Assembly (NCBI GenBank): GCA_012520935.1
Contig: JAAYNG010000096.1
Location: 1 to 19,613, forward strand
Reading direction: 5' to 3'
Length of the DNA stretch: 19,613 nt
DNA from: Tissierellia bacterium
GTDB taxonomy: Bacteria; Bacillota; Clostridia; Tissierellales; Peptoniphilaceae
In this document: in pieces, positions 1,742-3,580 of the stretch
Layout of the letters: each line of letters begins with the position of its first letter
Position numbering within the stretch: position 1 is the stretch's first letter
Position numbers and translations under genes: made by a program
The notes under the pieces: generated by a model
Told to the model about the DNA's origin: nothing
The model's database searches: none
The model's input: the letters and a program-made list of their open reading frames with translations, nothing else

Positions 1742-1962
1742 TGAAATTTTCAAAACTTTTTTAATTCTTAATTTCTTTTTAACCATAAATTTACATTCAT
1801 CTCGTATAATAATCCTAGAGAATTTCTTCTCTCTCTTTTTCGTTTAGGAAGGCGTTCGGTGCAGCGTCTTTCTTTTTTGTTTGACTTTTCTATCACCATA
1901 GTACAAAAATATTGACATCATACGCAATATGACGTACCCTATTATTATAGGGGGAAATATTA

Positions 1963-2613
1963 ATGCCAATGACATCTAGGCAGAAGATTAAGCTTTTAAA
2001 GGATAATGGTTTTACATATATACCAAGTGGCGATGGTTCTCATAAGAAGTTTAAAAATTTCAAGATTGGTAGAACTACCATAGTTCCGGACTATCCAGGC
2101 AAGGAGTTGGGAAAGGTTTTGGAGCATGAAATTTTGAAACAAGCAGGTCTTAACATGAATTGTTTAATGAAGGAGGGGATTGTTATGTTTGTTGTTTATC
2201 CTGCTATTTTTTTAAAGGGATTTGATGGAGGATATACTGTTAATGTGCCTGACTTAGATGGTTGTTTGACAGAGGGAAAAAATTTATACGAAGCTTTTGA
2301 AATGGCTGAGGATGCTATTTGTTCTTATCTTTTTGAGCACTATATTGATAAGATTGCTTTTCCTCCTGCTTCAGATATTTCAAACATAGAGATTAAATTA
2401 GATGAAGAAGAAAAGTTAATTTTTGATTTGTCCGGGTCTTTTATAAGTTATGTTCATGCTAATGTGGGAGAATTTATTAAGAGAAGTGAGAATAAGGCTG
2501 TTAAAAAGACTTTATCTATTCCAAGCTACCTTAATGAAATTGGAATTAGCAAAGGAGTTAATTTTTCTCAAATCTTACAGGATGCACTGAAAAATGAATT
2601 TAACCTTAGTTAA
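1963..2613 (+). CDS. hicAB: HicA toxin domain fused in frame to HicB antitoxin (216 aa). HicB also has its own RBS and ATG at 2185.
   Basis: Residues 1-63 match HicA: GSH catalytic motif, KELGKVLEHEILKQAGL C-terminus. From about residue 75 the protein is HicB-like (MFVVYPAIFLKGFDGGYTVNVPDLDGCLTEGKNLYEAFEMAEDAI, RNase-H-like fold). The C-terminus looks like a ribbon-helix-helix DNA-binding tail. There is no in-frame stop between the two domains. An internal AAGGAGGGG RBS sits 7 nt before ATG 2185. Confidence 0.75.
   Translation: MPMTSRQKIKLLKDNGFTYIPSGDGSHKKFKNFKIGRTTIVPDYPGKELGKVLEHEILKQAGLNMNCLMKEGIVMFVVYPAIFLKGFDGGYTVNVPDLDGCLTEGKNLYEAFEMAEDAICSYLFEHYIDKIAFPPASDISNIEIKLDEEEKLIFDLSGSFISYVHANVGEFIKRSENKAVKKTLSIPSYLNEIGISKGVNFSQILQDALKNEFNLS
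2185..2613 (+). CDS. hicB: HicB antitoxin (independent translation start inside the fused ORF)
   Basis: Strong internal SD AAGGAGGGG at 2169-2177 with a 7-nt spacer to ATG 2185. The sequence from MFVVYP onward is a typical HicB N-terminus. Confidence 0.6.
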   Translation: MFVVYPAIFLKGFDGGYTVNVPDLDGCLTEGKNLYEAFEMAEDAICSYLFEHYIDKIAFPPASDISNIEIKLDEEEKLIFDLSGSFISYVHANVGEFIKRSENKAVKKTLSIPSYLNEIGISKGVNFSQILQDALKNEFNLS

Positions 2614-2630
2614 AAAACCATGTTCAAAAA

Positions 2631-2663
2631 CCCTCATTAGAAAATTCTTTGAGGGTTTTATTT
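2631..2663 (+). terminator. Rho-independent terminator after hicAB
   Basis: CCCTCA / TGAGGG stem followed by a T-rich tract (TTTTATTT). Confidence 0.65.
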
Positions 2664-2915: not shown

Positions 2916-2998
2916 GTCTTTATTTTAAACTTAAGGGCAAAGGGGGATTTATATATGGAACTATCTGAAAAAATTTTAATTTAAGAAAAAAGCAAGGA

Positions 2999-3580
2999 AT
3001 GTCCCAAGAGGACTTGGCAGAAAAACTAAATGTTTCAAGGCAGGCTATTTCTCGCTGGGAAAACGGGTCTACAAAGCCGGATGCGGATAATATTTTACAG
3101 TTAAGCAAGCTGTTTGCTGTTACGACTGATTACTTACTTAATGATGAATATGAATCAGACAATGACCTGCCAAAGGTAAAGGAAGTTAAAGAAGACCAAA
3201 GCGGACAGATATTAATTTATCTTGCAATATTAATGCTTATGAATTTAATTGTACAATTTATGTGCGTTTTCATCTTAAAAAATTTATTGTTCAGTCTATT
3301 AAGTTTTATTCCTTTTGTTAGTATGATACTTGCCTATGAATATGCTTATAGAAAGAAACCTACTGAAAGGGGAAAGGTATTTAGAAAGAAGTTTTACAAG
3401 ATTGCTGTTTGGCTTGGAACTTATTTTCCGATTAGACTTTTATTTTTAATTGTTATGAGTTTGTACTCTCGTCCATATTCAACTTTAGCGTTGGAGTGTG
3501 TCATTTTAGCGGTTTATATTGGAACGGCTTTAAAGATTGATTTATTTATAGAAGAAAGTTATTTAAAAAATCAGAACTGA
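2999..3580 (+). CDS. XRE-family HTH regulator fused to a 4-TM membrane domain. The N-terminal helix is encoded upstream (2955-2984) in another frame.
   Basis: MSQEDLAEKLNVSRQAISRWENGSTKPDADNILQLSKLF is a canonical XRE HTH lacking helix 1. ATG 2955 encodes MELSEKILI followed by a stop. Adding one A to the A6 run at 2968-2973 would give MELSEKNFNLRKKQGMSQEDL..., a complete HTH. The C-terminal half has four hydrophobic helices. Confidence 0.7.
   Translation: MSQEDLAEKLNVSRQAISRWENGSTKPDADNILQLSKLFAVTTDYLLNDEYESDNDLPKVKEVKEDQSGQILIYLAILMLMNLIVQFMCVFILKNLLFSLLSFIPFVSMILAYEYAYRKKPTERGKVFRKKFYKIAVWLGTYFPIRLLFLIVMSLYSRPYSTLALECVILAVYIGTALKIDLFIEESYLKNQN

Follow-up and report, generated by a model that had tools for sequence, protein, structure and literature searches.

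A HicA-HicB fusion allele that segregates with its split form in a near-clonal Tissierellia population

Is a reading frame that runs from the toxin gene hicA straight into the antitoxin gene hicB an error, an established single-chain toxin-antitoxin, or a fusion at the moment of its origin? The question is raised by positions 1963-2613 of the window, that is, the whole stretch of 19,613 nucleotides that was analysed, which is all of contig JAAYNG010000096.1 (assembly GCA_012520935.1, a metagenome-assembled genome labelled Tissierellia bacterium). Here the frame is uninterrupted over 216 codons, HicA first and HicB after it, as the sequence-only reading had stated and as both the list of open reading frames (ORFs) and Pfam confirm. 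The fusion is a genuine allele segregating in the population of one near-clonal organism, with split copies alongside. The parts of the frame are as follows.

1963..2613, plus strand: fused hicAB ORF of 216 aa (ORF list and Pfam); the stop codon is 2611-2613
1963..2151, plus strand: HicA toxin domain, residues 1-63 (Pfam PF07927, alignment with 5YRZ_B, AlphaFold2 model, Foldseek)
2152..2184, plus strand: linker NMNCLMKEGIV, residues 64-74, the translated remainder of the former 31-nt hicA-hicB spacer
2185..2487, plus strand: HicB N-terminal domain (RNase H-like, toxin-binding), residues 75-175 (Pfam PF15919, phmmer, Foldseek)
2494..2610, plus strand: HicB C-terminal ribbon-helix-helix (RHH), residues 178-216, a KKTLSIP strand and two helices (alignment with 5YRZ HicB, AlphaFold2 model)

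Both halves are recognised independently of each other. The Pfam family HicA_toxin (PF07927) matches residues 6-63 with 51 bits (E 1.6e-13, cut-off 27) over profile positions 2-58 of 58, and the catalytic motif G25-S26-H27 is kept in the fused ORF, aligned with the GSH of Streptococcus pneumoniae HicA (5YRZ_B). The latter aligns to residues 1-63 (E 1e-3) and terminates at the aligned KQAGL, in agreement with the earlier placement of the end of HicA at about residue 63. In the AlphaFold2 model, this half folds as alpha-beta-beta-beta-alpha (helices 5-14 and 51-61, strands 18-20, 27-32 and 37-42), and in a Foldseek search of the Protein Data Bank the N-terminal 60 residues were matched by 5yrz_B (target-normalised TM-score 0.85, root-mean-square deviation 2.0 A) and also by 6g26_E. 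The HicA half is thus predicted to be a member of the HicA family with the double-stranded RNA-binding domain (dsRBD) fold and the Gly-Ser-His motif.

The HicB half is matched in its first part by HicB_lk_antitox (PF15919; residues 79-143, 33 bits, E 7.4e-8, cut-off 27, N-terminal part of the profile), and phmmer aligns S. pneumoniae HicB (5YRZ_A) end to end over residues 75-216 (E 4e-15). The top Foldseek matches in the Protein Data Bank are likewise HicB chains, namely 5yrz_C/A (E 3e-10), 4p7d and 6g26. The C-terminal RHH reads KKTLSIPSYL...NFSQILQDAL, compared with KKTLTIPKWA...NFSQTLTDAI in 5YRZ_A; its helices are modelled at residues 188-196 and 201-212, and its strand is not seen in the monomer model because the strand forms only in the dimer. 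The model of the whole fusion, built on 126 homologues, has a mean predicted local distance difference test score (pLDDT) of 84.3, with values of about 80-95 outside the linker. The sole segment below 50, residues 66-72, lies within the linker and is predicted to be disordered. A search of NCBIfam with the 216-aa ORF gave no match.

A separate observation concerns the two halves together. The second and third strands of HicA (FKNFKxGRTTIVPD, 2050-2095) resemble the first and second strands of HicB (FLKGFDGGYTVNVPD, 2209-2250), and MAFFT aligned HicA homologues onto HicB. The likeness is probably due to chance, and it is a trap for the automated alignment of fused HicAB proteins.

The sequence-only reading had also drawn attention to a strong Shine-Dalgarno sequence (SD) and an ATG at the domain junction. 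Both are present, exactly as in the split alleles described below, and the start of a free HicB is retained.

2170..2178, plus strand: hicB SD AAGGAGGGG, now intragenic and inside the linker (read from the sequence; identical in split alleles, where it serves hicB)
2185..2613, plus strand: hicB frame of 142 aa from the kept ATG (2185-2187) (NCBI annotation, P0121 = NLM06599.1; the same protein in split alleles)

The 142-aa HicB (NLM06599.1) is the only product that NCBI annotated at the locus on this contig. No significant RNA structure was found over the internal SD in either the fused or the split allele (z +0.33 and -0.24).

The reality of the fusion is settled by its recurrence. The 90%-identity protein cluster that contains it holds three sequences of 216 aa, three HicB sequences of 142 aa and two HicA sequences of 64 aa; the fusion protein occurs in seven assemblies besides the window, identical in P0124 and near-identical in P0001 and P0127. 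Altogether, the fused allele is present in eight assemblies: the window, ERZ27280794, ERZ27280797, ERZ27280799, ERZ925071 (run ERR843250), ERZ925075 (run SRR3184552) and the Logan assemblies of SRR3184675 and SRR3184649. At least five assemblies (ERZ925054, ERZ925076, ERZ773356, ERZ778524 and one metagenome contig of the Joint Genome Institute, JGI) carry the split allele, which consists of a 64-aa hicA ending in AGLK-TAA, a 31-nt spacer and a 142-aa hicB. The runs SRR3184675 and SRR3184649, which are fused in their Logan assemblies, were also assembled with MEGAHIT, as ERZ925054 and ERZ925076, and are split there; both alleles are consequently present in at least two read sets. The fused junction was obtained with MEGAHIT k127, MEGAHIT k141 and Logan from at least seven read sets, and either allele came out of several runs and more than one assembler, which makes the sequencing error suspected in the sequence-only reading untenable. 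Bases that restore a stop between hicA and hicB, to which that reading had pointed as evidence against a fusion, do exist in the same read sets; they belong to a co-existing second allele and are not a correction.

The organism behind the two alleles is almost uniform. Over about 4.8 kb, twelve assemblies differ at nine single-nucleotide polymorphism (SNP) sites and by one indel, the 4 bp at the junction, which is the sole length difference. The neighbourhood of both alleles is the same (S8 peptidase, hicAB, an XRE-family gene, ComEC and HolA), and several assemblies with the locus are labelled biogas fermenter metagenome. The exact junction pattern had no match in GTDB species genomes, where a protein-based scan gave Anaerococcus-group loci only; among the GTDB genomes there is thus none of this species with this sequence.

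How the fusion arose can be read from the junctions, which are GGT CTT AAG TAA CAT GAA... in the split and GGT CTT AAC ATG AAT... in the fused allele. The two differ by 4 bp (GGTCTTAAGTAACATG versus GGTCTTAACATG).

2150..2153, plus strand: where the 4 bp were deleted, CTTAAGTAAC in the ancestor and CTTAAC here, with the former hicA stop TAA (alignment of alleles, L012 and Anaerococcus-group loci)

The missing bases can be written as TAAG, AAGT, AGTA or GTAA, and their exact placement is ambiguous because TAA stands on both flanks. Such a loss between two TAA triplets bears the signature of a microhomology (slippage) deletion. It does two things: the stop of hicA is gone, and hicB, previously in the +1 frame, is now in the frame of hicA. 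The remaining 27 nt of the spacer contain no stop in this frame and are translated as the linker N64-MNCLMKEGIV-M75. In neither of the other two frames could the spacer be read through: one is closed by TGA 2156, TAA 2165 and TGA 2168 and the other by TAA 2151. Within the HicA domain, K64N is the only change relative to the split allele, and the internal SD and ATG are unaltered.

These alignments revise the origin proposed in the sequence-only reading, which had noted TAA 2165-2167 and TGA 2168-2170 one nucleotide out of frame and suggested a single-base indel, or else a sequencing error. The triplets do lie in the +1 frame, together with TGA 2156-2158, but they are merely spacer; as the old hicA stop they are ruled out by the allele and outgroup alignments, which place it at about 2150-2153, and the alleles, L012 and relatives all indicate a deletion of 4 bp at TAAG|TAA instead of one base.

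The direction of the change follows from the relatives. The closest outgroup is L012 (Logan SRR23724921), with about 95% identity over the locus and a split junction that reads TAAGTAA. The Anaerococcus group provides eight further loci, made up of L013-L016, found through their HicA homologues, and five GTDB representatives (Anaerococcus sp., A. tetradius, A. porci, Urinicoccus massiliensis and a Peptoniphilaceae bacterium), with the A. tetradius scaffold shared with L013. The junctions of three of L013-L016 were aligned and four were read from gene tables. All eight are split, with a 64-codon hicA, a stop, a spacer of 31-38 nt with an SD, and a hicB of 143-145 codons; the comparison with related loci suggested in the sequence-only reading has thus found a stop at the junction in L012 and in every locus of this group. 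The 22 closest HicA homologues, from a search of 5.8 billion clusters, are free-standing without exception (52-64 aa), and the seven of them whose sequence was read have 63-64 aa and the C-terminus KQAGL(K/L). As L012, the Anaerococcus-group loci and the closest HicA homologues are all split, the split state is taken to be ancestral and the fusion derived and recent.

L012 also presents an observation of its own. Directly after the catalytic His, its hicA is interrupted by a nonsense codon, K28* (AAG to TAG, 289-291), and its hicB is intact; this is an independent knockout of the toxin.

Around the indel, the sequences of the alleles are mosaic. Three SNPs fall within the ORF, at 2066 (I35/T35), 2121 (synonymous, L53) and 2338 (H126/Y126), and the assemblies combine them with the indel as listed here in the order 2066, 2121, indel, 2338.

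T-G-del-C: the window and L009
T-G-del-T: L001-L004
C-G-del-T: L008
T-A-del-C: L010
C-A-ins-T: L005 and L006; L007 ends before 2338
T-A-ins-C: L011
T-N-ins-T: L017

The ancestral haplotype, judged from L012, is suggested to be C-G-ins-T. Mostly, the deletion travels with a distinct base at the synonymous SNP 30 nt upstream. All four gametes are nevertheless present for the indel and SNP sites 85-190 bp away, in 4.8 kb that are otherwise near-clonal. The mosaic haplotypes may reflect recombination among co-existing strains, recurrent mutation, or assemblers that resolve neighbouring bubbles independently; the JGI contig (L017, position ~311) has an N at 2121, which points to the last of these in mixed populations. 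An enrichment of SNPs in hicAB (3 in 651 bp versus 6 in ~4150 bp) is not significant, with a rough Poisson P of ~0.12, and the ratios of nonsynonymous to synonymous substitution rates relative to L012, 0.26 for hicA and 0.40 for hicB, are based on 10-13 differences each, too few for a conclusion.

Fused HicA-HicB proteins are not without precedent. HicA contexts have been sorted into 14 classes, of which Class 11 is a monocistronic HicA-HicB-DBD (DNA-binding domain), defined by bioinformatics only; its model has three domains, with dimerisation by way of the DBD (Gerdes, mBio 2024; PMC10865869). The fused Classes 11-13 are known from database surveys only. For fused HicAB a role in defence was proposed, with CapRel(SJ46) and EzeT cited as the model, and for Class 12 a fusion of ancestral separate genes was considered plausible, the reverse not being excluded (PMC10865869). 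By its predicted domains, the window ORF corresponds exactly to the architectural definition of Class 11, as it is one ORF that encodes the dsRBD of HicA first, an RNase H-like HicB domain in the middle and the RHH at the C-terminus. Unlike Class 11 proteins, the window fusion is very recent and segregates with a split form, and its linker is an unaltered translated spacer in which the SD and ATG of hicB are kept. Neither is the fused state conserved in relatives, which would mark a selected, functional fusion; it is confined to one allele of one near-clonal population. Compared with Class 12, where the direction of the change was left open, both the direction and the mutation are visible at the window locus.

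Among solved structures, the closest relative of both halves is the bicistronic S. pneumoniae HicBA (5YRZ), with its RHH-type HicB, which consists of two separate proteins where the window encodes one chain. In 5YRZ the N-domain of HicB sterically covers the active-site His of HicA, and the RHH binds the operator (PMC6159526). The nearest relatives in sequence are the split hicAB loci of Anaerococcus, Urinicoccus and Peptoniphilaceae (for example A. tetradius ATCC 35098, NZ_GG666295), whose HicA is 60-79% and HicB about 50-56% identical and which share the gene order and the SD-bearing spacer of 31-38 nt; in contrast to the window, all of them keep the stop after hicA codon 64. The layout of the split sibling allele (a 64-aa HicA and a 142-aa HicB that ends in an RHH) is that of Gerdes Class 4, the bicistronic hicAB, and accordingly yields two separate proteins, which the window ORF does not. 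CapRel(SJ46) and EzeT resemble the window protein in combining toxin and antitoxin domains in one polypeptide, with auto-inhibition in cis there, but their families are unrelated to it, the fusions are of long standing and conserved, and their triggers have been demonstrated by experiment.

How rare the arrangement is was assessed with a HMMER scan of 1.84 billion representatives, which found 1,874 relatives. Pfam was run on ten of the best 150 that stood out by their length or by the pattern of the match, and one, P0264, combines HicA and HicB. This protein of 164 aa has a spacer-like linker of 13 residues followed by the HicB Met, and an aberrant C-terminus without the RHH; it may be an accidental product of read-through or frameshift too. 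The earlier statement that a tethered hicAB would be unusual for the family therefore holds as far as rarity is concerned, with P0264 the only other case among the best 150 of the 1,874 and none among the closest relatives, but not as novelty, as Class 11 had already been described (PMC10865869).

What the allele does is best considered from the mutation itself. In a sub-population of a biogas-reactor Tissierellia bacterium, a canonical chromosomal hicAB has undergone a 4-bp deletion between two TAA triplets (CTTAAGTAAC to CTTAAC), a single event that removed the stop of hicA, brought hicB into its frame and turned the spacer into a flexible linker of 11 residues. Two products would be expected: a HicA-linker-HicB-RHH protein of 216 aa (24 kDa) from ATG 1963, and the free 142-aa HicB from ATG 2185. 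Free HicA would no longer be produced, each toxin domain being present 1:1 with its own antitoxin. The disordered linker, at most about 35-38 A long when extended, should permit HicB to lie over the HicA His in cis or across the RHH dimer, and HicA would be kept inactive by its own chain or, in trans, inside the RHH-mediated dimer. The toxin would share the proteolytic fate of the antitoxin, and selective proteolysis of the antitoxin would yield no pool of free toxin unless the linker were cleaved. With toxin and antitoxin on one chain, the differential-stability logic of type II systems would thus be lost or strongly damped, and the functions of repressor and antitoxin would be preserved. Toxin loss seems to be acceptable at this locus, going by the K28* of L012. 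Because free HicA would be lost, the toxin would be tied to its antitoxin and loss of the toxin seems tolerated in L012, the allele is regarded, with somewhat better than even confidence, as a tolerated, toxin-attenuating lesion that recreates the Class 11 layout, a fusion at birth and not an anciently selected single-chain system.

Several points weigh against this view. Toxicity, neutralisation in cis, initiation at the internal ATG and co-degradation are predictions made from sequence. The predicted template-modelling score of the AlphaFold2 model is only 0.52, with a disordered linker, and the docking of HicA on its own HicB remains an inference. Proteolysis in the disordered linker could release active HicA. 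By count of assemblies, the fused allele is as widespread as the split one, and it carries the additional amino-acid changes T35I and Y126H; such spread and such changes would also fit an allele that works and may even be favoured.

Other accounts of the locus differ in how much of this evidence they can accommodate. That the true locus is split and the fusion a mis-called indel is very improbable: the split form in ENA assemblies of the same two runs as the fused Logan contigs and the annotation of the 142-aa HicB alone would suit an error, but an identical 4-bp deletion outside any homopolymer in eight assemblies, from at least seven read sets and three pipelines, would not, nor would the distinct base at the SNP 30 nt away that accompanies it in most assemblies, with at least two assemblers behind each allele. 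A reversible phase variation, in which the 4-bp tract toggles between a split, toxic-capable state and the fused one, has next to no probability. Both alleles do occur in the same samples, and the indel is found on several SNP backgrounds with four-gamete violations within 90 bp; however, TAAGTAAC contains no repeat tract, and once the deletion has occurred there is no template from which slippage could restore the G-containing unit. The mosaics are accounted for more simply by recombination or the independent resolution of bubbles, as the N at a linked SNP in one contig illustrates.

The remaining accounts concern what becomes of the polypeptide. Plain pseudogenisation, with a fused protein that misfolds or is degraded and a locus reduced to a solitary hicB (an orphan antitoxin or repressor) translated from the internal start, is unlikely but deserves to be weighed: L012 has reached the same end state through its hicA nonsense codon, the SD of hicB (AAGGAGG) is stronger than that of hicA, and the NCBI pipeline annotated HicB only. 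On the other hand, AlphaFold2 models both domains as well folded outside the linker, natural fusions of the same layout exist, and the sequence has no sign of instability. At the opposite end stands a functional, positively selected HicAB of the Class 11 type, auto-inhibited in cis, released when a trigger, for instance a phage protein, binds HicB, as in CapRel(SJ46), and tuned in its sensitivity by free HicB. Fused HicAB families with a proposed defence role (PMC10865869), the integrity of both domains and of the catalytic His, and the presence of the allele in many samples with two later non-synonymous changes that cause no disruption all speak for it. Yet it is distinctly unlikely, as the fusion is restricted to part of one near-clonal population and absent in all relatives examined, the linker is a mere translated spacer with no signs of adaptation, the neighbours are housekeeping genes (S8 peptidase, ComEC, HolA, RpsT) and not a defence island, the sister lineage L012 simply knocked out hicA, and the substitutions are too few for selection to be detected. 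A bolder form of the same idea, which is strongly doubted here, is a newborn functional single-chain HicAB that is inhibited in cis, released by a phage protein or by cleavage of the linker, given its threshold by free HicB, and rising in the reactor through better-controlled defence. If it were true, the locus would be a natural example of a one-step origin of Class 11.

The locus has a bearing on the family as well. A single 4-bp microhomology deletion is enough to give an ordinary pair of genes the Class 11 layout, and the split allele, in an almost identical genome and in the same samples, is a natural matched control. The case also calls for caution, in that a fused toxin-antitoxin on record may in some cases be a young read-through allele, perhaps in decay, and not an evolved single-chain system; P0264 is similar in its spacer-like linker and aberrant C-terminus. 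Beyond the allele pair and this caution, the locus represents ordinary toxin-antitoxin micro-evolution.

Two further elements flank the ORF.

1949..1955, plus strand: putative hicA SD AGGGGGA, 7 nt before ATG 1963 (read from the sequence)
2627..2663, plus strand: hairpin AAAACCCTCA / TGAGGGTTTT followed by a T-run, 14 nt past the stop (inverted repeat I14, 100% complementary)

The hairpin and T-run are likely the operon terminator. A terminator scan did not call them because the loop has 13 nt. Two SNPs, 2630 and 2635, lie in the 5' arm of this putative terminator; position 2635 is C in the window, L003 and L005, giving a perfect stem, and A in the other assemblies, where one pair is broken. 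A promoter scan found seven sites where 6.3 were expected, which is not above chance, and a palindrome, CCCTAT-N4-ATAGGG at 1937-1952, is not regarded as a conserved operator since it is not conserved in L012.

Downstream of hicAB, the interval between hicB and the XRE-family gene contains a segment of about 138 nt (~2683-2820, core 2703-2784) that is absent from L012. It contains nested perfect inverted repeats (CGTCATTGCGAG...CTAGCAATGACG and CGAAGCAATCCA...TGGATTGCTTCG), folds at -37 kcal/mol (z-score -5.8 versus shuffles) and is present as a single copy in the window. The segment had no match in an Rfam search and could be a small inserted palindromic element, similar to a miniature inverted-repeat transposable element (MITE) or a repetitive extragenic palindromic (REP) sequence, or an uncharacterised RNA.

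The XRE-family helix-turn-helix (HTH)/membrane gene that follows (2956-3580) appears to be frameshifted in its 5' end, near 2981. In L012 the gene begins ATG GAA TTA TAT GAG AAG ATT TTA ACT TTA AGA... and encodes 208 aa (MELYEKILTLRKKQGMSQ...). The window reads ...ATT TTA A-T TTA AG, one base short, and its frame ends as MELSEKILI-stop. What remains is a 193-aa ORF from ATG 2999, which is minus the first 15 HTH residues. The frameshift sequence is common to all twelve near-clonal assemblies.

Elsewhere in the window, the intergenic region after the S8 peptidase gene (1650-1738) holds three overlapping 43-nt direct repeats with 23-nt spacing, equivalent to about four 23-nt units (ACTGGAATGAAAnTnCTAAAnnT). 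Upstream of an operon for an ABC substrate-binding protein and permease lies a T-box leader of full length (RF00230; 11268-11491, plus strand, 120.7 bits, E 1e-26).

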